DNA of 12,601 nt, taken from the IMG/VR virus record IMGVR_UViG_2606217105_000016, positions 1-12,601 of that record, one strand, 5' to 3'. Under the pieces are notes generated by a model. It had not been told where the DNA came from. It worked only from the letters and a program-made list of their open reading frames with translations, and did not search any database. Position numbers and translations under genes: made by a program. Of the stretch, positions 1 through 12,601 are shown in pieces (the first letter of the stretch is position 1; each line of letters begins with the position of its first letter). The stretch comes from a virus. Taxonomy: Duplodnaviria > Heunggongvirae > Uroviricota > Caudoviricetes.

Positions 1-1119
1 TCAAATAACCAACTTAACCCATTCCTGACCTCGAGTATCGTTATAGCGATCGGTGGTTGCCTGGACTTTATGTCCTAGTAATGTTTTTGTATCGATACCC
101 TGTGCACGGTACAGCCGTTCTGATAGAGAGCGTTGTTCATGAAATGTTGGCGGAGTTTTTCCTGCTGGTGGAATTATCCCAGCCAGATCCCGTGCTTTGG
201 CAAAGTAGTCGCTCAGGTTGTCTTTACTCATCGGCTTCGGTTGTTTCTGGTGCCGACTATGGATTAGATATGGACTTAATATTCTGTCTCGGCACCCATC
301 AATAACTTCTTTTAACGTTATCCCAATGGCATCACAGCGTAGTGTAAGCGGTAACGCCAGACGCATTCCGGTTTTTCCCTGGGTGATATGCAAGTGTTCG
401 TTCCACACATCTGAAAAACGCATGTGGCAAATGTCATCACGGCGCTGACCAGTAACAATCGCAAGAAGCATTGCGTTACGGATAAAGTGTTTTTCAGGCG
501 TTGCATTGTAAATTTTTTGCCAGTCTTCCATGGTGAGCCTAGCTCTGGTTACTTTAGGGATCGGTTTACGGGTAGCCTCCGGAGGATTCCATCCAGGAGG
601 AACTTCCCCTGCATGCTGTGCTTCTTTATAAATATCAACCCATAATCCACGATTTACTCTCGCTGTGCTGACCATGTCTTTATCCAGCCACTCATCCAGT
701 ATTAATGCAAAGTCTCTTACTTCCAGTTCTTTCAATGGGTGGTTTCCCAGACGGGAAACCAGGTATGCAGCCATTCGAGTTTTTTCTTTGTGAGTTGTAG
801 CTGCAATATCTCCATTTTTCAGTCGCGTGTCCTGTATTTTCAGATATCGATCAACCCATGCCTTTAATCTGATACCCCGACGTTTTGTTGCTGACGGACT
901 TTCATCAATTTTGCGCATGAAATATTCAGCTTCTGCTGCAGCTATTCGCTGATTGGCTGTGGAAGCGATTTTTTCTGCCTTACCTTTGTCTGTTCCGAGT
1001 CCGTGAAATTTTCCAGTCACAGGATTTTTATACTGGTAGTAAACTCTGCCAGTTCTGCGATCAAACTTTTCGTAAAGACCGGCTACGTCAGTGCTGTTTT
1101 TTCGTGGCCTCGGTGACAT
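1..1119 (-). CDS. int: Phage tyrosine integrase (lambda Int family)
   Basis: 372-aa ORF with ATG at 1119..1117 and stop at 3..1. The C-terminus (HEQRSLSERLY...LLGHK...TTDRYNDTRGQEWVKL) closely matches the lambda Int catalytic tail as recalled (HELRSLSARLY...LLGHK...YRDDRGREWDKI), including the His/Arg and Tyr nucleophile region. The start overlaps the upstream excisionase gene as in lambda int/xis. Confidence 0.93.
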   Translation of the reverse strand: MSPRPRKNSTDVAGLYEKFDRRTGRVYYQYKNPVTGKFHGLGTDKGKAEKIASTANQRIAAAEAEYFMRKIDESPSATKRRGIRLKAWVDRYLKIQDTRLKNGDIAATTHKEKTRMAAYLVSRLGNHPLKELEVRDFALILDEWLDKDMVSTARVNRGLWVDIYKEAQHAGEVPPGWNPPEATRKPIPKVTRARLTMEDWQKIYNATPEKHFIRNAMLLAIVTGQRRDDICHMRFSDVWNEHLHITQGKTGMRLALPLTLRCDAIGITLKEVIDGCRDRILSPYLIHSRHQKQPKPMSKDNLSDYFAKARDLAGIIPPAGKTPPTFHEQRSLSERLYRAQGIDTKTLLGHKVQATTDRYNDTRGQEWVKLVI

Positions 1120-1357
1120 GAGTTAAAATCTCCTTCAGTGCATCATCATCGCCAGTATGAATTTCCGGCGCAATTCCCGTTTCACCAGGCCCAACAAATA
1201 CTGCTCGGCGATCTATCAGCCAACGCCCACGAATTTTTTGTGGTCTTGGAACGATGTATCCTAGTTTTCCGTATTTCACCAGGGTAGTGTTTGTTATTGG
1301 GAGACTGAACCGTTTTGGTTTCCACTCGTCGAGCGTTATCAGGTACTGTTCGCTCAT
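1088..1357 (-). CDS. xis: Excisionase-like protein
   Basis: Small (~89 aa) basic ORF immediately upstream of int, overlapping it by 32 bp. ATG at 1357..1355 is preceded by GGAG about 8 nt upstream; the ORF track extends to a GTG at 1366. Position and size fit a lambdoid Xis; sequence identity was not verified. Confidence 0.65.
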   Translation of the reverse strand: MSEQYLITLDEWKPKRFSLPITNTTLVKYGKLGYIVPRPQKIRGRWLIDRRAVFVGPGETGIAPEIHTGDDDALKEILTHVTEATKKQH

Positions 1358-1418
1358 GGCTATCACTCCGGAACGCGCCAGTTGCAGAATATCAACGACA
1401 ACTGGCGACGGTTGAACA

Positions 1419-3890
1419 TTAAAAATCAGCCTGACTCGGGATCAGTTTTTGCCAGATAACTGAAACGTATTTTGCCTGGTAACGGGCGTCATCAAGTGCA
1501 TTATGGCGCTCACCTTCGAATGGAATAGCCGTTCTGGCATCGAAGTCTATGGCTTTCCCCAGCTCAACGATTGTGCGTACATCGCGATCGTTGTAGTAAC
1601 GCCACGGGCAGGGGATCCCCTGCCGTTCGTATGAACGGCGCAAAATCGTGTTGTCGAAGTTGGCTCCATTTCCCCAGACCTGAACAAAAAATTCACCGGA
1701 GTTTTCGTCGATAAATTCCCGCAATTGTAACAGTGCATCATCTAACGGGATTTCATCGGTCATAATGGCAGATTGCGCCTCGCGTGATTGCTTAAGCCAC
1801 CATTTAATGGTGTCACGATCAATGACTCCGCCAGCAGTTTCCAGATCGATAGTCTTACTAAATTCCGGTCCCATATCTCCGGTTTGCGGATCGAAAAATA
1901 TTGCACCTATTGAGATAATCGGGGCATCAGGATTTTTTCCCATGGTTTCAAGGTCGATCATTAGATGGTCACACGTCCTGCTGGTGGATGTGATAACGCG
2001 ATGACCGTTCACCGTAATTAAGGGATCTGCCGTCTCGCCAGTTTCACTATCGCTGGCGTGATCCTGAGCGCTGCCAGCATTCTCCTTGTGTGGGTGTTCA
2101 GCGCCTTCCATTTTCTCCGAATCGTCTTCCTGAACTTCAACCTGGTTCTTGTCATCGAATGTTTCCTGGTATGTTGCGTCGCCCATCACCGCACCACAAT
2201 CAGGGCAGTTGCCACCACCGCTCTGACCGCAGGCGGTGCAGATTTTTTCCGGTTCCTGTTGCACTACTGGTTCAGGTTGTTTCGTTTCTGGCTCGTTTTG
2301 TTGCGTATTTGGGCTGTTTTGTTCCGCTTTCTGGTCGTTCTGTTCCGTTTCTTGCTGGTTCTGGTTCACAGTATCGCGGGTCTGGATCCCCTTAACCCAT
2401 TTCGGATCATTCGGGTCGCTAATCCCTTCAATAAATTCACCACGTGATGCAGCAAGCAACTTATCGGCGTCAGGCTGGCTGATATTGGCTGCCTGCATAA
2501 TTTTGTTTACTTCGTCAGCGGTAACTTTTACCGGTTCTGGCTGTGCGGTCGTGTCAGATGCACCAGTATTTTGTTGTGAACCTGAGTATGTACTGTTTTT
2601 GCGGGCGAAATATTCTTCTTTCGTGATTTCAGTAGCCCCGGCAGCCAGCGCCTTATCCAGACCAGAAAGTTTGTTTGCGCGACCGTATTTTTCGCCATCC
2701 TTGTCGGTGAAGAGGAAGTAGAACGGCCCCTCACGCTCTACAGATGGTTCGACTTCCACTTTGCATTCGGTTTTTTCGTTGTCCGGAATTGCCGTTTCCA
2801 CTGCATCAGTTTCTGGTACTGGCGACGAGAGAGTATCAGTTGCGCTCTGATTTGTTCCTTCATCTTCAAACACGCCCTTTGTAGTCAGGTATTCAGTAAT
2901 GTATTTGTTCAGTGCCACAGGATCTTTGTGAATGTCGATCGGACGTCCACGGACAAGGCCAAAAATAGTCTGGCGGTCGTAGCGAAGGGCATCAGGCTGT
3001 TTGCGCATCGATGCCGAGATACGCTTCCAGTCTTCGCGGTCGTTGTCGATAACTTCATTTTTTGCCCAGCGATGGATGCTGCCGTCAATGTTTCCGGCAT
3101 CCACATCACCAGGCCAGAGAGCGTAGGCCAGTTCGTCATCCAGTGTTTTCCATGTCTGCTTGTATTCGCGACGAATGACTGCAGTGACAGGGGAGATATT
3201 TTCTGCTGAGTTTTCAGTGTGCTGTCGGTTGACTCTGGCGCGGGCGAGATCAACAGCAGACGTGTATTTTCCGGTTTCCTTGCGTTCACCTTCGCGACGT
3301 TTTTTCCAGATGCGCATCTCTGCCTGAATTTCGGGCCATTTAGCTCCAGGCTTACATTTATGCTTAACCCACCCGATGGCATGCAACTTAAGTTCTGGAT
3401 ACATGGCGTTAACTTCTGGCATTTTCATCAACGCTTCAACGATATGTCCGTCGAATGTTGCCATGTCTTCCTGCAACAATTCCTGCGCGCTAATCACCAT
3501 ATCAACGGTGATGTTTTCACATGTGTCGAACTTAACCATGACAGCGTTCTGTACTTCAGGGGCCAGCTTGTCAAAAGTGACGTTCATCGGATCTGATTCA
3601 GTCTCAACCGGGACAAAGGAAGCAGACTCCTCATCCCAGCGGTTTTCCTGCATATATTCAGCATCCCAGGAATCGAGGGCAGGGCGGGGTATACCGGGTT
3701 TATCCTCGCAAACAAGAAATTTATAAGCGCAGTCCTGAGCAGCCGGATAATGCTCCAGGAATTGCCAGTGAAATTTTGCGCGGGCGCGACGTTCATCACC
3801 GGCTTCAATGGCAGTGGCTACAGCGACTGCACCTTCTTCCTTTATTGCCTGTTCGTCCGGAATGGCGGCGCAAATAAAGACTTTACTCAT
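1419..3890 (-). CDS. Exodeoxyribonuclease VIII-like protein with C-terminal DnaQ-like DEDDh 3'-5' exonuclease domain, CxxC-x7-CxxC zinc ribbon and Q/E/N-rich linker
   Basis: 823-aa ORF, ATG at 3890..3888 with GAGG upstream. C-terminal roughly 190 aa carry the exonuclease motifs Exo I (MIDLETMG), Exo II ([13 protein letters not shown]) and Exo III ([10 protein letters not shown]). Zinc ribbon [15 protein letters not shown] is encoded near 2190..2237. A low-complexity Q/E/N/P linker is encoded near 2236..2400. Confidence 0.85.
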
Positions 3891-3982
3891 TTTGTTTTAC
3901 CTCATTACAGATTTAAGGGTGAACAAATCCCTGCCATTGCTGGCATATAAGAATGAAAGCGGATGTTTATTACGGAACTGTT

Positions 3983-4174
3983 TTAAAGACCTGCCGGGAT
4001 TTCGTTATTATCCTGGTGAATAACTTTATCGACCGGGTAACAGTTACCGGGAATTTTCTGTTCGGTTGCTGCAGTCATACATTCCTGCATTGTCCTGTGA
4101 ACACTGACTGCAATATCAACTGGCTCTCCGGAAACAAGATAAACTGTCAGAACAAGCGCAAATGCTGAATTCAT
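3983..4174 (-). CDS. Small hypothetical protein with N-terminal signal-peptide-like hydrophobic segment (~63 aa)
   Basis: ATG at 4174..4172 preceded by AAGGA 8 nt upstream. Begins MNSAFALVLTVYLVSGEPV, which looks like a signal peptide or membrane anchor. Its start overlaps the stop of the upstream ORF in an ATGA arrangement. The ORF track's longer 81-aa version starts further upstream at 4228. Confidence 0.5.
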   Translation of the reverse strand: MNSAFALVLTVYLVSGEPVDIAVSVHRTMQECMTAATEQKIPGNCYPVDKVIHQDNNEIPAGL

Positions 4175-4359
4175 TGTGCACATCCTTTTGGCATCAGACG
4201 TAAACGAGCCAGCATTGAAACAATGCATATTTTATTTAATAGCTCCCGTTCTTGTTTTCTCTTGTTAATGGCATCTTCAGTAAATACTGGGTTACTGATA
4301 GTGACACCAATTTCAAAACAACCTTCAGACGTATTAACGTTTGGTAATAACGTTTCCAT
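4171..4359 (-). CDS. Small hypothetical protein (~62 aa)
   Basis: ATG at 4359..4357 preceded by GAGGA 7 nt upstream. Its TGA stop (4173..4171) overlaps the ATG of the downstream gene, suggesting translational coupling. The ORF track's 97-aa version starts at a GTG at 4464, which is less convincing. Confidence 0.45.
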   Translation of the reverse strand: METLLPNVNTSEGCFEIGVTISNPVFTEDAINKRKQERELLNKICIVSMLARLRLMPKGCAQ

Positions 4360-4917
4360 TATCGCGTCCTCAACAATGAATTTTGTGATGCGGTGCCTGG
4401 TGCCTCCAGGTGACGTTAACCAGTTAACAATTAACGCCGGATACAGAGAACCCACCCATAACACTGTTTTTGGTTTTAACTGTTCCGCGTGCGCTTAGCC
4501 GCATTCACCGCATCACAAAATTCACTTTAAAAAGGGCGGCAGAGCAGTCACGGAGTAAAACTGATACCGCCAAACGCCACCAGAAAATTGATAACAGAGG
4601 GCGTTGCAGCGGGGTTGTCACTTAAGCGTATGGTCAACCTGACAACCCGGTGTCCTCAACGGGGAAGGAATAACCCCGCCATACTTACCGCCGCGCCATT
4701 TCGCGGATTGCCACAACCGGAAGCGCACGGTCGAATTAAATTTAACGACACCGTACAGACAGAATAACTTCGCCGTGCGCTTTCGCGTTATGTCCTGACT
4801 TTTCAGGGATATATCCTTCCAGTAAACTGCCAGTGCCGGATGCTCACCCGTGTCCGGCGCACGCACTCCACCTGACCCGTGGAGAACTCCTTAATTACCA
4901 ACCCTCAGGAGGGTGAA

Positions 4918-5139
4918 ATGACTAGTAAAAATGTAAATATCCAGTTTAACCACGATGTTTCTCCTGCTGGACTTGCGGATGAGCTCACTGCTATAAAAAC
5001 GGCAATTATGCTACTTGCTGCTAAGTTGCCTGCGTCATCAAAGCCAGCGGAAATTTGTGACTCATTGCGTAAGATGAATTCAACAAAATGCAATGAGATG
5101 GCATCACTTATTGAAAGTGCAATTGATTTTAATGATTAA
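4918..5139 (+). CDS. Hypothetical small protein (73 aa)
   Basis: ATG at 4918 preceded by a canonical AGGAGG (4907..4912) with 5-nt spacing. It is the only plus-strand gene in a block of minus-strand genes and overlaps the 3' end of the convergent gene 5129..5503 by 11 bp. Confidence 0.5.
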   Translation: MTSKNVNIQFNHDVSPAGLADELTAIKTAIMLLAAKLPASSKPAEICDSLRKMNSTKCNEMASLIESAIDFND

Positions 5140-5503
5140 TCGAAATTTCATGGCTAACTGTAACACTCCCATCTGTGGCGGGATGGTTTAAATCGCTGGG
5201 ATTAATGCCGCACTCAGTAAAATGGTTCTTAAGGGGTTCTATCCGAATCCCTTTCTTTTTCATTAACAAGCCAAACCCCTTATCAATGATATCCATTAAT
5301 TCCAGGAGGTATTTTTCATGTAAATCCTGGTTATCAGAGAGCTGCTTCTCTTCGTACAGACCGATAAAGGCACGACGCACGTTACCGGATATAGTATCGA
5401 TGGTTTCTTTTTCTACGGTACTCAGGTCAAGAGTCGCCAGTTGGGAACGAACTATATTCGCTGCCATTTCCTGGAATTGCATTGGTAAATCTTTAAATTC
5501 CAT
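5129..5503 (-). CDS. Hypothetical protein (124 aa)
   Basis: ATG at 5503..5501 with GAGG upstream. It is the second gene of the leftward operon downstream of the repressor-flanking operators. No recognisable motifs. Confidence 0.6.
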   Translation of the reverse strand: MEFKDLPMQFQEMAANIVRSQLATLDLSTVEKETIDTISGNVRRAFIGLYEEKQLSDNQDLHEKYLLELMDIIDKGFGLLMKKKGIRIEPLKNHFTECGINPSDLNHPATDGSVTVSHEISINH

Positions 5504-5525
5504 TATTAGCCTCGTTGGTTAGCTA

Positions 5526-5744
5526 TTAACGCGGGCATGTAATCATTCTGGCAATGCTTAATGCCGCTGCTTTTTCCAGCCTGGTGATATCCTGCTCCAG
5601 AGCGGACAGATTTTCAGCCTGCTTAGCCTTGGCTTCATTGGCCCATTTCAGATCCTGCGCTGCATTAATTTTCTGGCGCATCCACTCATAAAGTTCATCA
5701 TCGGTATAGTCTGGCGCGATGATGACGGGTTCTCGTTTCTGCAT
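5526..5744 (-). CDS. Hypothetical protein (72 aa), first gene of the leftward early operon
   Basis: ATG at 5744..5742 preceded by GAGGA 6 nt upstream. Acidic, predicted helical. It lacks an arginine-rich N-terminus, so it is not an obvious lambda N-type antiterminator. Confidence 0.6.
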   Translation of the reverse strand: MQKREPVIIAPDYTDDELYEWMRQKINAAQDLKWANEAKAKQAENLSALEQDITRLEKAAALSIARMITCPR

Positions 5745-5939
5745 ACTGATTCCTCGCGGTGCTGTTTCCCCTTAACGCCGGGGTAGCGGAACAAAAACCT
5801 GCTGCATAGTTATTAAAGTTGAACCCTGCCGTCATGTTCTTACGCCTCGGGCTGGCTACTTAACCCCTGACCACTGCCTGGTAACTCAAAGTATTGCCCT
5901 GCATTCTGTGGGGCGGGGTGGGTTGGTATGAAAAGAAGG

Positions 5940-5978
5940 ATACCCATAGGTATTTAAAAAGTAAATACCCATGGGTAA
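5940..5978. promoter_or_regulatory. OL-like operator pair with a leftward pL-like promoter
   Basis: Two 14-bp palindromic sites 25 bp apart: ATACCCATAGGTAT (5940..5953) and ATACCCATGGGTAA (5965..5978, containing the perfect 12-bp palindrome TACCCATGGGTA). On the minus strand these interleave with a -35-like TTTACT and a -10-like TATCCT, mirroring the OR/pR arrangement. Confidence 0.6.
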
Positions 5979-6019
5979 CCTTTTGCAGTGTCTTAACTGG
6001 TGACTAGTTGTTTGGTGAG

Positions 6020-6439
6020 CTATGATGCGTTTTGTGCTTTCTTTTTACGGATTTCTTCGTAGATCATATTGTAATACTGTTTTTTCTCTTCAAGAGTTTT
6101 TAATAATTTATCCGCTTCACTTTCTGGCAGTTCGTCTAAGAGATCTAAAAAAATACGTTGTCGTGGCGTTAGAACCCTTGTTTCATAACTGGAGGCTGTG
6201 TTCGTTGATGATGAAACGATACCATCCATCCATCCCCGGGGTAACCCAAAGGACTCTTCGATAATCTCCACCATATCATCAGCGATCCGTTTTTTTCCCT
6301 TTTTCCCCTCTGGGTACAACATTCTTGATACATAAGAAGGCTCGCGCCCGATCTTTCTGGCCACGTTAACCGCTTTACCATCGCATTTCTCATCACGAAT
6401 TTTGATGAGTTGCTGTCGTCTAAATTCATATTTGTCCAT
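6020..6439 (-). CDS. CI-like phage repressor (HTH DNA-binding protein)
   Basis: 139-aa ORF with an HTH-like segment (AVNVARKIGREPSYVSRMLYPEGKKGKKRI). It is divergently arranged with a Cro-like gene across an operator-bearing intergenic region. There is no Shine-Dalgarno before the ATG, which sits about 7 nt downstream of a TATTAT -10 on the minus strand, suggesting a leaderless mRNA as for lambda cI from pRM. The repressor is small, with no obvious S24 peptidase domain. Confidence 0.75.
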   Translation of the reverse strand: MDKYEFRRQQLIKIRDEKCDGKAVNVARKIGREPSYVSRMLYPEGKKGKKRIADDMVEIIEESFGLPRGWMDGIVSSSTNTASSYETRVLTPRQRIFLDLLDELPESEADKLLKTLEEKKQYYNMIYEEIRKKKAQNAS

Positions 6440-6445
6440 AGGTAA

Positions 6446-6514
6446 ATAATAGATGCGATTACTGCAAGGTAAACAACCTGTGGGTATTGACTTTTGTTTA
6501 CCTGTGGGTATTCT
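6446..6514. promoter_or_regulatory. OR-like operator pair with divergent pRM-like and pR-like promoters
   Basis: Two 14-bp sites 24 bp apart: CAACCTGTGGGTAT (6474..6487) and TTACCTGTGGGTAT (6498..6511), sharing the half-site GGTAT with the OL sites. pR-like -35 TTGACT (6487..6492) and -10 TATTCT (6509..6514) overlap the operators. pRM-like -10 (minus-strand TATTAT, plus coordinates 6446..6451) sits just upstream of the repressor ATG. Confidence 0.6.
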
Positions 6515-6539
6515 TTGCTGTGTTTACTAAGGAGTAGCT

Positions 6540-6821
6540 ATGGAAGAATTAAGAATATTTCTCAATTCTCTTTCGTCAGATGAACAGCGTATGTTTGCAT
6601 GCGAGTGTGGTACCAGCATCGGTTATCTAAGAAAGGCATTGAGTAAAGGTCAAGTGTTAGGGGCATCGTTATGTGTCCTTATTGAGCGAGCCAGTAATGG
6701 TGAAGTTACACGTCAGCAACTAAGGCCTTTGGATTGGATGAATATTTGGCCCGAGCTGGAAGATACCAAAACGTTAACACAACCACTTTCTAGGAGCTTG
6801 ATTCATGAAAATCAAGCATGA
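6540..6821 (+). CDS. Cro-like (YdaS-type) small HTH regulator
   Basis: 93-aa ORF, ATG at 6540 preceded by AAGGAG with 5-nt spacing. The segment CGTSIGYLRKALSKGQ resembles a Cro/YdaS-type HTH. Divergent from the repressor. Confidence 0.75.
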   Translation: MEELRIFLNSLSSDEQRMFACECGTSIGYLRKALSKGQVLGASLCVLIERASNGEVTRQQLRPLDWMNIWPELEDTKTLTQPLSRSLIHENQA

Positions 6822-7230
6822 ACACATCCGCATGGCGATGAATGCCTGGGCGCGTCCTGATGGCGAAAAAGTTCCAGCAGCTGGAATAACCCAGGCTTAT
6901 TTTGAGTTGGGTATGACGTTTCCTGAACTGTATGACGACAGCCATCCGGAAGCCTTGGCTCGCAATACCCAGAAAATTTTCCGCTGGGTAGAGAAAGACA
7001 CCCCTGATGCAGTTGAAAAAATTCAGGCGTTGTTACCAGCGATCGAAAAGGCAATGCCACCTTTGCTGGTGGCCAGAATGCGCAGCCACAGTTCAGCTTA
7101 TTTTCGGGAGCTGGTGGAGACGCGGGAGCGACTGGTGAGAGACGCTGATGATTTTGTCGCAGTGGCAATCGCCGGTTTCAATCAGATGAACCGTGGTGGC
7201 CCGGCAGGAAATGCTGTGGCAGTACATTGA
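6805..7230 (+). CDS. CII-like / YdaT-like prophage protein
   Basis: 141-aa ORF overlapping the Cro-like gene by 17 bp; ATG at 6805 with AGGAG upstream. Size, position immediately after the cro-like gene and the N-terminus MKIKHEHI match my recollection of Rac prophage YdaT. This is from memory, not verified. Confidence 0.65.
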   Translation: MKIKHEHIRMAMNAWARPDGEKVPAAGITQAYFELGMTFPELYDDSHPEALARNTQKIFRWVEKDTPDAVEKIQALLPAIEKAMPPLLVARMRSHSSAYFRELVETRERLVRDADDFVAVAIAGFNQMNRGGPAGNAVAVH

Positions 7231-7301
7231 CTGACAATAGCCATATCGAATCGCTTCCGGCAACTCGTGAGTAAAAAGATTCGGTATCAGAAGAGGTGAG
7301 T

Positions 7302-8372
7302 ATGGCTAACGCCTGGCTCAGATTATGGCATGACATGCCAAATGACCCTAAGTGGCGAACAATTGCCAGGGTGTCAGGGCAGTCAATTGCAACAGTGATG
7401 GCAGTGTATATCCACCTCCTGGTGAGCGCGTCACGAAATGTCACGCGAGGTCACATTGATGTCACGACAGAAGATTTGGCAAGTGCGCTCGACGTGACAG
7501 AAGAGGTAATTGATTCAATTTTGCAGACGATGCAGGGGCGGGTACTTGATGGTGATTTAATCACTGGATGGGAAAAACGCCAGGTGCTGAAAGAGGACAA
7601 CGGCAATATTTCGCAAACCGCAAAATCTCCGGCAGAGCGCAAGAGGGCGCAGCGAGAGAGGGAAAGAAAGCGGGAACAAAATGGAGATTGTCACGGCGCG
7701 TCACGAAATGTCACGCACATGTCACGACGAGTCACGACAGATAAAGATACAGATAAAGATACAGATCAAGAAGATCAAAACACTATGGTCCATGGCGTAA
7801 AAAACGCCACGAACCAGGCAGGGGATGTTCAGACCGTCAATCCTGGTCAGCCAGCAGGCACGACACCGGAAGCCGATTCAGCGTATGCGCTGAAAGCCGA
7901 TTCGGGCGCTGTGCAGCAGGTGATGACCGCAAGGCCGGAGCAATCACACCAACTGCAGCAGCCTGAAGCCGATTCCGCCATTCAGCGGGAAGCCGATCGG
8001 GTAGTCCCGGAAAACACCGGGCAGCCTGTGAGACGAGTGGATTATCCGGATGTGTTCGAACAGGTCTGGCGGGAATACCCGTTGCGTGCTGGGGCAAACC
8101 CGAAGAAATCCGCTTTCAGTGCCTGGAAGGCCAGATTACGCGAGGGGGTGCCACCAGAGGCCATGCTGGATGGCGTGAGGCGTTACGCAAGATACTTGGC
8201 GGCTACCGGGAAAACGGGAACGGAATTTGTTCAGCGAGCGACGACGTTTTTTGGACCGGACCGGAATTTTGAGAACCCCTGGTTGCTCCCGGTAAGCGGC
8301 ACGAACAACCAGCGTTGTGTGAATCATATTTCTGAACCGGATAACGAAATTCCGCCGGGCTTCAGGGGGTAA
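7302..8372 (+). CDS. Replication initiator-like protein (YdaU/DUF1376-like) with internal iterons
   Basis: Probable ATG at 7302 with AAGAGG 5 nt upstream; the ORF track begins at a GTG at 7296. It sits where lambdoid phages carry the O-type initiator, and contains two iteron clusters in-frame, analogous to ori-lambda inside gene O. It also contains a DKDTDKDTD tandem repeat. Confidence 0.7.
   Translation: MANAWLRLWHDMPNDPKWRTIARVSGQSIATVMAVYIHLLVSASRNVTRGHIDVTTEDLASALDVTEEVIDSILQTMQGRVLDGDLITGWEKRQVLKEDNGNISQTAKSPAERKRAQRERERKREQNGDCHGASRNVTHMSRRVTTDKDTDKDTDQEDQNTMVHGVKNATNQAGDVQTVNPGQPAGTTPEADSAYALKADSGAVQQVMTARPEQSHQLQQPEADSAIQREADRVVPENTGQPVRRVDYPDVFEQVWREYPLRAGANPKKSAFSAWKARLREGVPPEAMLDGVRRYARYLAATGKTGTEFVQRATTFFGPDRNFENPWLLPVSGTNNQRCVNHISEPDNEIPPGFRG
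7426..7470. repeat. Iteron cluster 1 (candidate replication origin element)
   Basis: 45-bp block gcgcgtcacgaaatgtcacgcgaggtcacattgatgtcacgacag with TCACG-type motifs at about 10-bp phasing (7431, 7441, 7451, 7462). Its first 21 bp are identical to the start of cluster 2. Confidence 0.65.
7696..7740. repeat. Iteron cluster 2 (candidate replication origin element)
   Basis: 45-bp block gcgcgtcacgaaatgtcacgcacatgtcacgacgagtcacgacag, exactly 270 bp downstream of cluster 1. TCACG motifs at 7691, 7701, 7711, 7722 and 7732 are phased at roughly one helical turn. Confidence 0.65.
7740..7775. repeat. Short tandem repeat (12-bp unit gataaagataca, two copies plus degenerate copies)
   Basis: gataaagataca at 7740..7751 and 7752..7763, followed by gatcaagaagat. 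Encodes DKDTDKDTDQED inside the replication gene. Confidence 0.7.
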
Positions 8373-8412
8373 GTGTTGATTTCTGGTCATGAGGTAATTT
8401 TCAGGAGGACTT

Positions 8413-8823
8413 GTGGCAAAAGTTTTTACACAAGAAGAGCGAGAAAAAATTAAAGGGCGGGTTGTTGAACTCGTACGCCAGAGTGGGCGTGAGACGTTAC
8501 GGCAACTGGAAGTCAAGACAGGTGCGACAAGATATCTGATGAGCGTTCTCGCAAGAGAGCTGGTTGCCAGCGGCGATGTATACAACTCTGGTTACGGGTT
8601 ATTCCCGTCTGAACAGGCGCGTAAGGACTGGCAAAATGCCCGTAAAAAGCTCTCAAGGGCAAAGCCGAAGAAACCATCTGCGGTTGATCCGGACCTTATC
8701 TGGTCATTACCTGACGGAGAAATACGTCGCTACGACAGGCGTCAGAACATAATCTGTCGCGAGTGCCGGAAGAGCGAAGTTATGCAGCGCGTGCTGGCGT
8801 TCTATCGGCGACGTTTTAGGTAG
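8413..8823 (+). CDS. Hypothetical basic protein (136 aa), possible winged-helix DNA-binding protein
   Basis: GTG start at 8413 preceded by AGGAGG (8403..8408) with 4-nt spacing. Arg/Lys-rich C-terminus with a CxxC-like RECRK segment. Function unknown. Confidence 0.55.
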   Translation: MAKVFTQEEREKIKGRVVELVRQSGRETLRQLEVKTGATRYLMSVLARELVASGDVYNSGYGLFPSEQARKDWQNARKKLSRAKPKKPSAVDPDLIWSLPDGEIRRYDRRQNIICRECRKSEVMQRVLAFYRRRFR

Positions 8824-9399
8824 CGTTACATTGAGCAAACGGTGCAGAATTGAAATAATAGCAATTCGGAAGTATGCCGCTACGATGATGGTTGAAAGCA
8901 TAGGTAAGTTGACTGGGAAGGTTGTTACTGCAGTGAGCTCAGTCCGTGTATATAACCCATCATTGCCTGAAGGTGAGCAACAATCAGGTGCAACCGAAGT
9001 TAACGGCAAGAAGCTATGGCTGATAATGGTTCTGCAAATGCCAAACCGTTAGTGATTTCCGGAGAAACAATGTGGAAGGATATGGCAAAGGTAAAAAGTG
9101 TCTGTGAAAGATGCAAAATATCTAAACCATACATACAACCTCCTATCATGTAATAGTGTCGATGCCATTTCAATACACGGTAGCTCAGGAGAGGGACGAA
9201 AACAGCGGATACCCATTTATCAGTACTGGTTTCTCAATCCTCAGGTTTACCCAAAACTCAACACTAATCCAGCTGGTTATGTGAACCAGGTAAATTCTTT
9301 TGGTGTGAACCTCTTGAAGATGAAAGTTTTTTTGCTATGTTAGTCAAACATAAACTTCCCCTTTTTGAGCAAAAAATACTCTTTTAGAAGGATATTTAA

Positions 9400-11511
9400 A
9401 TGGCGCGTCAATATGAAATGCAGATATCAAGGATGACAGTAGATAAATTAGGTGTGAAATTATATGACAGGGCTTATGCTGTTATAGCCGAATTAGTATC
9501 TAACAGTTACGATGCAGATGCGACTAATGTCACTATAAAAGCACCTATGGGCCAATACTTGGCTGTTAGACAGGATGGTGTTGTCAGGTCAAAAAATGTC
9601 ACAATAGAAGTAGAAGATAATGGCGTCGGAATGGCGCCTGATGAACTACAGAACTTTTATTTGGTTGTTGGCAAAGAAAGACGTAAGGATCCAAAAAGAG
9701 GTGAAACCTCGAAGGTGTTTCACCGCAAAGTCATGGGACGGAAAGGCGTTGGGAAATTAGCACCTTTTGGTGTTTGTAAAAGGGTCGAGATTATAAGTGC
9801 CGGTGGGGAAAAAATCAGTCGTGATGGAAAGGAAGGGTATGAGGTTGCTCATATTCAGCTAGATAAAGAAAAAATAATGGATGATACTGCAGTGTCTTAT
9901 AAACCGGAAACTGGGGATTTAGACGGCACACTAAGTGACAGGACCTATACTAAAATAATATTAAGTGATTTTGAATATAGAAAAATTAGCGAAATAAAAG
10001 ATTTATCTCGGCAGCTTTCACAACGTTTTGGAGTGAAGAGTAAAAACTGGAATATTAAACTGATTGATACTTCGAAAACAAAGTCTAATCCTGACTATGA
10101 AGTTGAGGTCGGAGAGTTTACTGTTCCTGTTATGCCTAACTCTAAAATTGAATTTCGTTCCATGAGTGGAAGTATTGCGACAGATTCTTGTACGGATTTA
10201 AGTGATTATACGGCTTTTAATCCTGACGGCACGCGTTCATCAATTGTTAAGGCCGGTTTTGAACATGAAGGGAAAGCTTACCCGATATTAGGTTGGATTG
10301 CATACGCGAAAGAGCCTTATAAGGACGAGTTAATGGCAGGTGTTAGAATTTATTGCCGAGGTAAGTTTGCTGCGCAAACAGCAGTTTTTAATAGAAAAGC
10401 TGGTTTTACTGGAGAGCACTCTATACGTTCATATTTGGTAGGTGAGTTGCATGCTGACTGGTTAGACGAAAAAGAAGATCTTATCCAAACTGATAGAAGG
10501 GATATTCTATGGTCTGATGATTTAGGAACGCAATTTCAGAATTGGGGGCAAGAAGTTATTTTACTTGTGGGTAAAATAACTCGCGACCCCCTTAGAAATA
10601 ATATGATGAATCAATTCTTCGAATTAGCGCAAGTGGAGGATAAGGTCGAGCAAGCATACCCTGGAGCCGGTCAAAAGGATATGCGAGCACAGGCTAAAAA
10701 AATAGCCAAGTTGTTGGGTAAATCTTTACGAGGTGATGAATTACATGATCCTGATGCACTCGAGAATTTAGTGCAGTTAAGTATTATGTTAGCACCATTA
10801 CAATCCTTAGATGAGAAGTTAATAGAAGCTTCCAGTAAAGCGGATACACCGCTCAATGTTCTCAACGATATTTTAGCAACGGCTCAACTAGCTGAAACCG
10901 TTAGTTTTGGTCAAAAGGTCAAAAAGCGTCTTCAGATTATTGAGCGTCTCGAGTCTTTAAAAGACGCAAAGGATACAGCAGAAGATGAGTTACAAGATCT
11001 AATTGCATCCGCTCCGTGGCTAGTTAACCCTCAATGGGTCCCAGTTACAGCAAATAAAACGTTGTCCACGCTTAAAAGGGAATTTCAAAAATTTTATAAA
11101 AAGAAAACTGGTGAGGAGATATTTCTTATAGATTTTGATAAAAAAAATAAAAGACCAGACTTTGTATTGTTTAGTCAGGATGGAAAATTACAAATAATTG
11201 AAATAAAAAAGCCACATCATTATATTTCCAATGATGAAATGGATCGTATTATTAATTACTTCGAAACATTCGAGGAGTTTTTGAACGATGAGAGACATAA
11301 TGATTTTAAATCAATAGCATCTGATTTTCACGTTACGCTGGTAAGTGATGGGGAGCGCTTGAGTGGGGCACGTCGTAAAGCTTATACTGCATACATCGAA
11401 GAAAAACGCCTAACACCCGTTGATTGGGCAGGGTTCTTGCTGAGGACAACTCAAACTCACCAAGAATTCTTGGATGAGGCAGAACAGTTGAAGTTGGGAA
11501 ATAATGAGTGA
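9400..11511 (+). CDS. GHKL-family ATPase (MORC-like) fused to a C-terminal PD-(D/E)xK nuclease domain; predicted ATP-dependent restriction endonuclease
   Basis: 703-aa ORF, ATG at 9400 preceded by AAGGA. N-terminal Bergerat-fold motifs: ELVSNSYDADA (E-x3-N-x2-D-A), DNGVGM (DxGxG) and GRKGVGK. C-terminal nuclease motif RPDFVLFSQDGKLQIIEIKK (PD...EIK). The stop overlaps the start of the methyltransferase gene by 8 bp. Confidence 0.8.
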   Translation: MARQYEMQISRMTVDKLGVKLYDRAYAVIAELVSNSYDADATNVTIKAPMGQYLAVRQDGVVRSKNVTIEVEDNGVGMAPDELQNFYLVVGKERRKDPKRGETSKVFHRKVMGRKGVGKLAPFGVCKRVEIISAGGEKISRDGKEGYEVAHIQLDKEKIMDDTAVSYKPETGDLDGTLSDRTYTKIILSDFEYRKISEIKDLSRQLSQRFGVKSKNWNIKLIDTSKTKSNPDYEVEVGEFTVPVMPNSKIEFRSMSGSIATDSCTDLSDYTAFNPDGTRSSIVKAGFEHEGKAYPILGWIAYAKEPYKDELMAGVRIYCRGKFAAQTAVFNRKAGFTGEHSIRSYLVGELHADWLDEKEDLIQTDRRDILWSDDLGTQFQNWGQEVILLVGKITRDPLRNNMMNQFFELAQVEDKVEQAYPGAGQKDMRAQAKKIAKLLGKSLRGDELHDPDALENLVQLSIMLAPLQSLDEKLIEASSKADTPLNVLNDILATAQLAETVSFGQKVKKRLQIIERLESLKDAKDTAEDELQDLIASAPWLVNPQWVPVTANKTLSTLKREFQKFYKKKTGEEIFLIDFDKKNKRPDFVLFSQDGKLQIIEIKKPHHYISNDEMDRIINYFETFEEFLNDERHNDFKSIASDFHVTLVSDGERLSGARRKAYTAYIEEKRLTPVDWAGFLLRTTQTHQEFLDEAEQLKLGNNE

Positions 11512-12601
11512 GAAAACAGTGACCAGTTTGAATGCAGTTGACCTATTTAGCGGTGGTGGGGGACTAACCATGGGACTAAAAATGGCCGGGTTTGATGTCA
11601 AAGCTGCCGTTGAACTGGACGCACATGCCGCCGCTACTTTCCAAGCAAATCATCGTGAGACAAAACTCTTTGTTCAAGATATTCGGTTTGTAAAGGGGAG
11701 TGATATCCTAAATCTTATCCCTGAGCAACATTTAGATCTTTTATCTGCGTGCCCGCCATGTCAAGGATTTACTAGTCTCACTGCCAAGTATAAAAGGGAG
11801 GACCCTCGTAATTTATTGATTAACGAGATGTTACGGTTGGTTGAAGAAACCAATCCATCAGCAATCATGATGGAAAATGTTCCTGGATTAGCTTCCCGGG
11901 GAAATCATCTTCTTTCGCCAGTAATTGAGAGATTGAAAAAACTTGGTTACATAGTTAATTATGGAGTTTTGCAAGTAGCTGACTTTGGTGTACCACAGTT
12001 CAGAAAAAGGCTTGTTCTGTTGGCAGGAAAAGGATTTGCCATCCCATTGCCTGATGGATCACACTCTAAGGATGGAAGAGAGAAACCCAAATGGGTAACT
12101 GTTAAAGAAGCTATTGGAGATATGCCAAAACCCTTAACTCTTTCACAGGCTAAGAAGCAAGGGAAGTTTCCATTGTCGAGTTGGCATATTGTTAGGGATT
12201 TGTCTGAGATCAATATAAAGCGGTTACAAGCGGCTGTTCCAGGGATGTCTTGGGAGTGTATTCCCGAAGAACTCCGTCCAGATTGCCATAAAGGCGACTA
12301 TAAAGGATTTAGTAATGTTTATGGTCGTATGCTTTGGGATGACGTATCGCCTACGATTACAGGTGGGTGCACAACTTTAAGCCGTGGGCGATATGGACAT
12401 CCTGAGGATACGCGTACTATTTCTGTTCGAGAAGCTGCTAGACTACAGACTTTTCCTGATAACTATGTGTTTGATACAGCTTTGATGGATAAAGTATGCG
12501 TCATAATAGGAAATGCACTTCCATGCAAGTTTGCAGAGTATTTGGCTAACCACTGTAAAAATTATATTAATAAAGCAAGAACAGCTGGATTAATACCATA
12601 A
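11504..12601 (+). CDS. DNA (cytosine-5)-methyltransferase
   Basis: 365-aa ORF with the canonical m5C methyltransferase motifs: I (LFSGGGGLTMGL), IV (PPCQGFT, catalytic Cys), VI (ENVPGL), VIII (QFRKRLVLL), IX (REAARLQTFPDNYVF) and X (GNALPCKFAEYLANH). A variable target-recognition region lies between VIII and IX. ATG at 11504 overlaps the upstream gene. Confidence 0.93.
   Translation: MSEKTVTSLNAVDLFSGGGGLTMGLKMAGFDVKAAVELDAHAAATFQANHRETKLFVQDIRFVKGSDILNLIPEQHLDLLSACPPCQGFTSLTAKYKREDPRNLLINEMLRLVEETNPSAIMMENVPGLASRGNHLLSPVIERLKKLGYIVNYGVLQVADFGVPQFRKRLVLLAGKGFAIPLPDGSHSKDGREKPKWVTVKEAIGDMPKPLTLSQAKKQGKFPLSSWHIVRDLSEINIKRLQAAVPGMSWECIPEELRPDCHKGDYKGFSNVYGRMLWDDVSPTITGGCTTLSRGRYGHPEDTRTISVREAARLQTFPDNYVFDTALMDKVCVIIGNALPCKFAEYLANHCKNYINKARTAGLIP

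Follow-up and report, generated by a model that had tools for sequence, protein, structure and literature searches.

We analysed a window of 12,601 nucleotides, the whole stretch of DNA under study (IMG/VR record IMGVR_UViG_2606217105_000016, positions 1 to 12,601), which covers the left arm of a lambda-like E. coli prophage with its immunity region. According to the sequence comparisons, positions 5930-6792 together with ydaT very probably form the immunity (lysis-lysogeny) switch of this prophage, with a probability of about 0.85. A first-pass annotation of the same DNA had proposed a lambdoid switch here, and this proposal has gained ground. A repressor and a Cro-like gene are divergent, operators lie over the predicted promoters pR and pRM and over a predicted pL, YdaT and its site are present, and the switch sits in an exchangeable cassette. 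The architecture is textbook lambdoid and not conceptually new; the operator specificity is uncharacterised.

The predicted elements of the switch are listed below. OL and OR are the left and right operators, aa stands for amino acids, and HTH for helix-turn-helix.

5930-6792: immunity cassette (OL/pL, repressor, OR/pRM/pR, Cro-like gene), delimited by BLASTN against Sakai Sp12
5940-5953: OL1, ATACCCATAGGTAT, perfect core; overlaps the pL -10
5965-5978: OL2, ATACCCATGGGTAA, perfect core, 12-bp perfect palindrome; abuts the pL -35
6020-6439, minus strand: 139-aa repressor; XRE-fold HTH 1-75, disordered linker 76-87, DicA/PaaR2-type helical hairpin 92-137
6459-6472: OR3, TTACTGCAAGGTAA, one core mismatch; lies over the -35 and spacer of pRM
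6474-6487: OR2, CAACCTGTGGGTAT, weak outer half-site; overlaps pR at the first base of its -35
6498-6511: OR1, TTACCTGTGGGTAT, perfect core; between the pR -35 and -10, overlapping the -10
6540-6821, plus strand: Cro-like (YdaS-type) protein, 93 aa
6798-6815: YdaT operator OM, TTGATTCATGAAAATCAA; straddles the 3' end of the Cro-like gene and the 5' end of ydaT (pRE-equivalent region)
6805-7230, plus strand: YdaT, functional analogue of cII, 141 aa

The cassette was delimited by comparison with the prophage Sakai Sp12, which is reported to be identical to CP-933P (PMC8630535). Positions 5762-5929 are 96% identical to Sp12, 5930-6792 have no match, and 6793-7219 are 82% identical. The break on the right falls on the first base of the YdaT site, and that on the left on the predicted start of pL. 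The block unique to the window holds exactly OL/pL, the repressor, OR and cro, and in its sequence it is a classical exchangeable immunity region.

Operator sites and their conservation

Four 14-bp sites had been annotated as two pairs on either side of the repressor gene, and we find all four exactly at those positions. The start-to-start spacing is 25 bp for OL1-OL2 on the left and 24 bp for OR2-OR1 on the right. A fifth site, at 6459-6472, had been missed. It adjoins the site at 6474 (OR3-OR2 spacing 15 bp), and OR therefore has three sites and OL two; the earlier count of two sites per operator region holds for OL but not for OR.

When the sites are aligned with the right-hand pair reverse-complemented, the consensus is ATACCCAYRGGTAW. 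The palindromes behind the annotated consensus, ATACC-N4-GGTAT, are real, but the pattern as given is weak. Allowing up to two mismatches, it matches seven times in the whole window against 3.8 expected, a number equalled in 16 of 200 shuffles. According to the sequences, the motif is better written as WTACC-N4-GGTAW, the family-wide core. In the window-wide motif search with up to one mismatch, this refined core also matches seven times, here against 0.96 expected, and none of the 200 shuffles reaches seven. The left and right promoter-operator blocks are moreover inverted copies of each other, with 5936-5959 79% complementary to 6492-6515 and 5957-5976 85% complementary to 6476-6495.

Core-like matches at 4334, 5299 and 10561 were not counted as operators, because they lie inside genes and about one such match is expected by chance. 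An extra site over the repressor start codon, TTGTCCATAGGTAA (6432-6445), was rejected as probably due to chance, since its offset is unoccupied in related loci and it is partly coding sequence. It differs from the consensus at three positions and from the WTACC-N4-GGTAW core at two, and it resembles the right half of OL1 with its flank.

A scan of one genome per species gave 38 loci with a homologous DNA-binding domain, which span Enterobacterales, Aeromonas, Arsenophonus, Neisseria, Paraburkholderia, Ralstonia, Ferrovum and others. The analysis set consists of 39 loci: the genome loci without the poorly matched L042, plus the phages mEp043 and CharmingMan. Within it the perfect core matches 109 times in 196 kb, against about 0.75 expected, and for 56 of the 109 matches the offset relative to the repressor ATG is -74/-73, -49/-48 or -34/-33. 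A pair of sites 24-26 bp apart, with a conserved -35/-10 placement, lies downstream of the repressor operon in 27 of the 39 loci. The window follows this family pattern, having sites at -72, -48 and -33 from the repressor ATG and the downstream pair at +461 and +486; the site that had been missed occupies the family-wide -34/-33 position. In the family the site at -49/-48 typically has a weakened GGTTA half-site. The first-pass annotation had made its proposal depend on conservation of the palindromes in homologous immunity regions, and with fixed offsets across the 39 loci this conservation is strong. That the four palindromes arose by chance because intergenic DNA is rich in A and T, as the non-significant count for ATACC-N4-GGTAT would allow, is extremely improbable given the shuffles of the refined core and its excess at fixed positions.

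In a tblastn search against phage genomes, residues 1-86 of the repressor are 65% identical to the cI of the lambdoid phage mEp043. In this phage the motif is found three times between cI and cro (25 and 15 bp spacing) and twice upstream of N, 25 bp apart, and the arrangement in CharmingMan is similar. A protein search finds the same N-terminal domain (64-82% identity) on many S24 (LexA-family) repressors of 221-242 aa and also on short proteins (135-140 aa) of Salmonella, Serratia and Yersinia. The motif sites are absent from three loci whose domain is only 30-38% identical (L039-L041) and from phage Tritos, whose CI is 39.5% identical over residues 21-139. Since it is missing next to such divergent homologues, the motif follows the DNA-binding domain.

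The Cro-like protein has 73% identity with mEp043 Cro (E 3e-40) and 36% with CP-933P YdaS (E 1e-16). It belongs to phrog_35 and matches Pfam YdaS_toxin with 25.9 bits, under the cut-off of 30. Its homologues are divergent to the repressor gene and adjoin it in most related loci. A Cro homologue accompanies the motif in most loci, so co-occurrence alone cannot tell which protein reads the sites, and they might be read only by the Cro-like (YdaS-type) protein or a host factor while the 139-aa protein binds other DNA. We regard this as very unlikely. The site offsets are fixed relative to the repressor ATG, and the presence of the motif tracks the identity of the repressor DNA-binding domain. Five Klebsiella loci without a Cro-type open reading frame (ORF; L008, L010, L012-L014) keep the -74 site in all five cases and the downstream pair in four. 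In CP-933P, the repressor PaaR2 and YdaS both footprint on shared intergenic operators (PMC8630535).

YdaT matches PDB 3c4r (E 8e-89), 8bt1, which is CP-933P YdaT (E 4e-79), Pfam YdaT_toxin and phrog_163 'CII-like'. The experimentally defined YdaT site is TTGATT-N6-AATCAA (PMC9986795). An exact match is present in one copy only, at 6798-6815, and the sequence is identical in Sp12.

Two variants were seen among the related loci. The Klebsiella loci retain the -74 site and have TTTGCTATATTTT where OR2 would be; a -34 site can be recognised in three of them (L012-L014). Four of them (L008, L012-L014) have no ORF in the search interval, and the ORF in L010 is unlike Cro-type proteins. Several S24-type loci carry, about 20-25 bp upstream of OL, a wide-spaced palindrome, TTACCTG-N10-CAGGTAA, with the same half-sites and a 14-bp gap instead of 4 bp. 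It is found in L002 (mEp043, 2553-2576), L005, L015, L017, L021 and L024, is absent from the window, and might be either a hairpin or an additional, third OL site with unusual geometry.

Promoters, the repressor start and the left operator pair

The predicted promoters and the hairpin at the left pair are:

6487-6514, plus strand: pR-like promoter, TTGACT-16-TATTCT; from the promoter scan
6446-6473, minus strand: pRM-like promoter, -35 TTTACC (6473..6468), 16-nt spacer, -10 TATTAT (6451..6446); from the promoter scan
5937-5965, minus strand: putative pL, -35 TTTACT (5965..5960), 17-nt spacer, -10 TATCCT (5942..5937); read by eye
5941-5977, minus strand: OL2/OL1 hairpin in the repressor transcript, followed by UCCUUCUUUU; from the terminator scan

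The annotated overlap of the operators with pL- and pR-like hexamers is confirmed by the scan for pR, to which it adds pRM; for pL it depends on reading by eye. The pL layout equals that of pR, with the -35 beginning at the last T of one site and the -10 at the TAT of the next. Related loci keep it: the last T of a site plus TGAC, AGAC or TTAC makes the -35, and the TAT of the next site plus three nucleotides makes the -10. Transcription from pL is predicted to start near 5930 and to read into ydfC, DicF, dicB, the exonuclease gene, xis and int.

The Cro-like gene has a Shine-Dalgarno sequence, AAGGAG (6529-6534), 5 nt ahead of its ATG at 6540. No Shine-Dalgarno or GGAG-like run is found ahead of the repressor ATG. 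Here TATTAT is followed by six nucleotides (TTACCT) and then the ATG at 6439, so that the A of the ATG is the seventh nucleotide past the -10, just as the first-pass annotation had described. In most of the 39 loci the -10 hexamer (TAGAAT, TAAAAT, TATGAT or TATTAT) likewise ends 6-7 nt before the ATG. The bases in between are neither conserved nor purine-rich, and no Shine-Dalgarno-like run is evident. In CP-933P, paaR2 has GATAAT, six nucleotides and ATG; its transcript starts at the A of the ATG according to 5' RACE (rapid amplification of cDNA ends), and N-terminal sequencing and mass spectrometry confirmed that it is translated without a leader (PMC8630535). Because the geometry in the window equals that of the experimentally leaderless paaR2, the repressor mRNA is most likely leaderless as well, beginning at the A of the ATG. 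The earlier suggestion of a leaderless mRNA is in this way supported by sequence and by analogy.

Alternatively, the maintenance promoter would not be TATTAT at 6446-6451, and the repressor mRNA would have a long leader from an upstream, pRE-type start. The pRM hexamers match 9 of 12 consensus positions, and the region gives two promoter-like matches against 1.4 expected by chance. CP-933P also has an alternative, YdaT-controlled start of its repressor operon. This explanation is nevertheless unlikely, as the -10 keeps its distance of 6-7 nt in most loci despite differing intervening sequence, and the repressor ATG, without a Shine-Dalgarno sequence, has the spacing of paaR2, whose leaderless translation is demonstrated. 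In lambda a pRE-type transcript coexists with the leaderless pRM transcript, and since both kinds can coexist, finding one does not exclude the other.

At the left pair, the terminator scan lists a hairpin with a 16-bp stem, a 5-nt loop and a TCCTTCTTTT tail, 43 nt past the repressor stop codon. The RNA fold has -27.6 kcal/mol (z = -6.7), and the stem is AT-rich with 5 of 16 GC pairs. No other terminator is listed between the repressor stop (6020) and pL/ydfC. With such a stem and a T-rich tail on the repressor strand, the pair at 5940-5978 could primarily be an intrinsic terminator of the repressor transcript instead of OL, its resemblance to the right-hand sites being incidental or secondary. 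We consider this improbable. A hairpin arises automatically from two adjacent copies of one palindrome, and 27 of the 39 related loci keep the pair with its spacing and its -35/-10 placement. The left block repeats OR1-OR2/pR in inverted orientation, and ydfC, dicB, xis and int require an early-left promoter at this place. mEp043 has a separate GC-rich hairpin with a T-run upstream of its OL pair. As the palindromes self-pair and related loci keep the promoter layout, we reject a terminator-only role and keep a dual one as plausible. An OL pair that is an operator and also terminates the pRM transcript is a tentative proposal, to which we give rather less than even odds.

From this layout we infer how the switch may work. 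A dimer of the 139-aa repressor would bind the 14-bp WTACC-N4-GGTAW sites through its XRE-type HTH. On OR1 and OR2 it would cover the -10 and -35 of pR and keep the Cro-like gene, ydaT and the replication genes off; on OL1 and OL2 it would cover pL and keep ydfC, DicF, dicB, the exonuclease gene, xis and int off. At OR2 the repressor would also activate its own pRM, as lambda cI does. The weaker OR3, over the pRM -35, would presumably be occupied at high repressor levels and give negative autoregulation. The OL1/OL2 hairpin with its U-rich tail may terminate the repressor transcript. The Cro-like protein should compete with the repressor for its operators, and YdaT would bind 6798-6815 as the analogue of cII.

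Several points weigh against reading the region as such a switch. OR2 is degenerate, with two core mismatches, and OR3 has one. The pL hexamers match 8 of 12 consensus positions, which is below the threshold of the promoter scan, and the scan does not list them. The symmetry of the left pair could partly reflect terminator function. No LexA box is found in the window, and no antirepressor is annotated in the complete copy of the prophage described below, small unannotated genes being outside this check. We found no paper on the operator motif or the mEp043 operators, in a literature search that left older and subscription-only papers uncovered.

The repressor and its relation to known switches

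The 139-aa protein, labelled 'hypothetical protein' in RefSeq, is considerably shorter than its S24-bearing relatives (221-242 aa). It has no match in Pfam even at E <= 10, and in particular no Peptidase_S24 domain; it is assigned to phrog_5736 'transcriptional regulator'. The AlphaFold2 model (pLDDT 86) shows four N-terminal helices, the disordered linker 76-87 and the C-terminal helical hairpin 92-137. The predicted recognition helix, residues 34-40 within EPSYVSRM (33-40), is nearly invariant across the family, and over residues 32-46 the protein does not differ from mEp043 cI. Homology to the DicA C-terminus is found in the last 46 residues (33% identity, E 2e-7). PaaR2 is a distant homologue, with 23% identity over 90 aa (E 8e-9) that includes the C-terminal helical domain; PaaR2 itself is reported to form octamers (PMC8630535). 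According to these comparisons, the repressor is chimeric, its mEp043-type DNA-binding domain being joined to a DicA/PaaR2-type C-terminus, without the S24 protease. It is outside the lambda-cI/LexA-type (S24) family, as the defining domain was tested for and is absent. With a DicA/PaaR2-type C-terminus and no S24 autoprotease, RecA-stimulated self-cleavage is not expected in de-repression.

The closest relative in overall organisation is the PaaR2-YdaS-YdaT switch of CP-933P/Sp12. The two share the prophage backbone, with flanks 82-96% identical, and the gene order, in which a short repressor is divergent from a YdaS-type Cro that is followed by YdaT. The intergenic region is 100 bp in the window and 97 bp in CP-933P, the repressor -10, six nucleotides and ATG are laid out alike, and YdaT and its TTGATT-N6-AATCAA site are essentially identical. 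CP-933P has the toxin-antitoxin genes paaA2-parE2 after the repressor, whereas the window lacks them, and only 41 bp without an ORF separate the repressor stop (6020) from OL2. The DNA-binding domain of the window repressor is of the mEp043 type, unlike that of PaaR2. The operators differ too, being WTACC-N4-GGTAW 14-mers in the window and GTTTAGTAA-based 18-bp repeats in CP-933P (PMC8630535), whose intergenic region carries GTTTAGTG repeats. The CP-933P switch has been dissected experimentally (PMC8630535, PMC9986795), while that of the window is predicted from its sequence.

With mEp043 the window shares the DNA-binding domain (65%), the Cro protein (73%), the motif, the three-site OR and two-site OL, and the layout of -10, six nucleotides and ATG. 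The cI of mEp043, in contrast, has 228 aa with a Peptidase_S24 domain, and is therefore presumably RecA-cleavable, where the window repressor has the DicA/PaaR2-type C-terminus. mEp043 also has a lambda-type cII and the N antiterminator, whereas the window has YdaT and no N gene was found in it.

The window resembles lambda, whose switch is summarised in PMC8630535, in having divergent repressor and cro genes, a three-site OR with OR1 and OR2 24 bp apart over pR, OR3 over pRM, and a second operator set over pL beyond the repressor gene. The repressor start is apparently leaderless in both. The centre of OR2 is 41.5 bp upstream of the predicted pRM start (+1 = 6439), and in lambda it is likewise about 42 bp upstream; it is from this corresponding position that lambda cI activates pRM. 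The sites are 17 bp long in lambda and 14 bp in the window, where OR2 and OR3 are only 15 bp apart. Lambda has OL1-3 against two detectable OL sites here, and the OL-OR distance is 2.3 kb in lambda against about 530 bp. The S24 C-terminal domain of lambda cI is missing from the window repressor, and the role of cII falls to the unrelated YdaT.

DicA of the Qin prophage (E. coli K-12), to whose C-terminus the last 46 residues of the window repressor are homologous, is of similar size (135 aa), and the left operon of ydfC, DicF, dicB and ydfD is the same. The N-terminus of DicA is a standard HTH_3 with no detectable similarity to the domain of the window repressor, and its partner is DicC instead of a YdaS-type Cro. 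Similarity between the window repressor and Rep of Salmonella phage SPC32H (PDB 5d50, Rep-Ant complex) was undetectable by phmmer.

Judged by sequence, the region is functionally a lambda-type bistable switch and by descent a heteroimmune sibling of CP-933P PaaR2-YdaS-YdaT, and its DNA-binding domain, Cro and operators belong to the mEp043 specificity group. Loci with the homologous DNA-binding domain range from Enterobacterales to Neisseria and Burkholderiales. There is a nearly even chance that the DNA-binding domain, the operators, the leaderless start and Cro form a portable module, re-fused here to a DicA/PaaR2-type oligomerisation domain that replaces S24. If so, the repressor would be uncleavable by the SOS response yet should provide cross-immunity against mEp043 and other S24-type phages, induction would use another route, for example an antirepressor, and the OL pair would double as the terminator of the repressor transcript.

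The family offers a natural experiment, in which one DNA-binding specificity is combined with two C-termini, the S24 protease or the DicA/PaaR2-type helical domain. It also adds a large and phylogenetically broad set of probable leaderless repressor genes. Of 5426 complete E. coli genomes, 822 (~15%) contain the segment 5850-6900 with >=80% coverage. The immunity region is thus common in E. coli and yet unannotated, and its DNA-binding domain is not covered by any Pfam model. With the operator code, the promoter map and the limits of the cassette, these prophages can be better annotated and co-immune phages predicted.

Prophage context

The remaining features of the window are:

1-1119, minus strand: int; xis also on the minus strand
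1419-3890, minus strand: gene for an 823-aa exonuclease, early-left operon
minus strand, leftward arm: ydfD and dicB
4534-4585, minus strand: gene of the small RNA DicF (Rfam RF00039, 76.4 bits)
minus strand: 124-aa ORF and ydfC (5526-5744)
plus strand, rightward arm after ydaT: replisome-organiser gene and DUF977

DicF is located between the 124-aa ORF/ydfC and dicB/ydfD. The presence of DicF with dicB and ydfD indicates a Qin-type cell-division-inhibition operon under the predicted pL. The exonuclease has a C-terminal Rv2179c-like 3'-5' exoribonuclease domain (Pfam 2e-67), and its gene is 95% identical in DNA to the Sp12 counterpart.

The pL leader (5745-5935) was searched for nut- or put-like structured RNA, and its fold is no more stable than that of shuffles (z = +1.98). 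An Rfam E-value scan gave only spurious miRNA-hairpin matches, on the OL pair. The untranslated leader sequence of about 170 bp at 5762-5929 is the flank that is 96% identical to Sp12/CP-933P, and its part at 5850-5930 is about 95% identical in several phages. This conservation may be that of a recombination flank.

The right end of the window (9400-12601) holds a prophage-borne type II restriction-modification pair. The restriction gene product has 703 aa, with a GHKL ATPase (HATPase_c_3) N-terminus and a PADLOC 'REase_II' match (7e-34). The overlapping gene for a C-5 cytosine methyltransferase (Pfam 6e-58, PADLOC MTase_II 9e-91) runs off the end of the window.

A prophage with the same immunity region is found in strain STS63-1-E (NZ_CP162163.1; L046, L001), where it adjoins potB. 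It looks complete, having terminase, portal, capsid, tail and lysis genes and Q. Its immunity region is near-identical to that of the window, and other cargo takes the place of the restriction-modification pair. A Ser/Thr kinase and PP2C phosphatase pair adjoins Q in this prophage.

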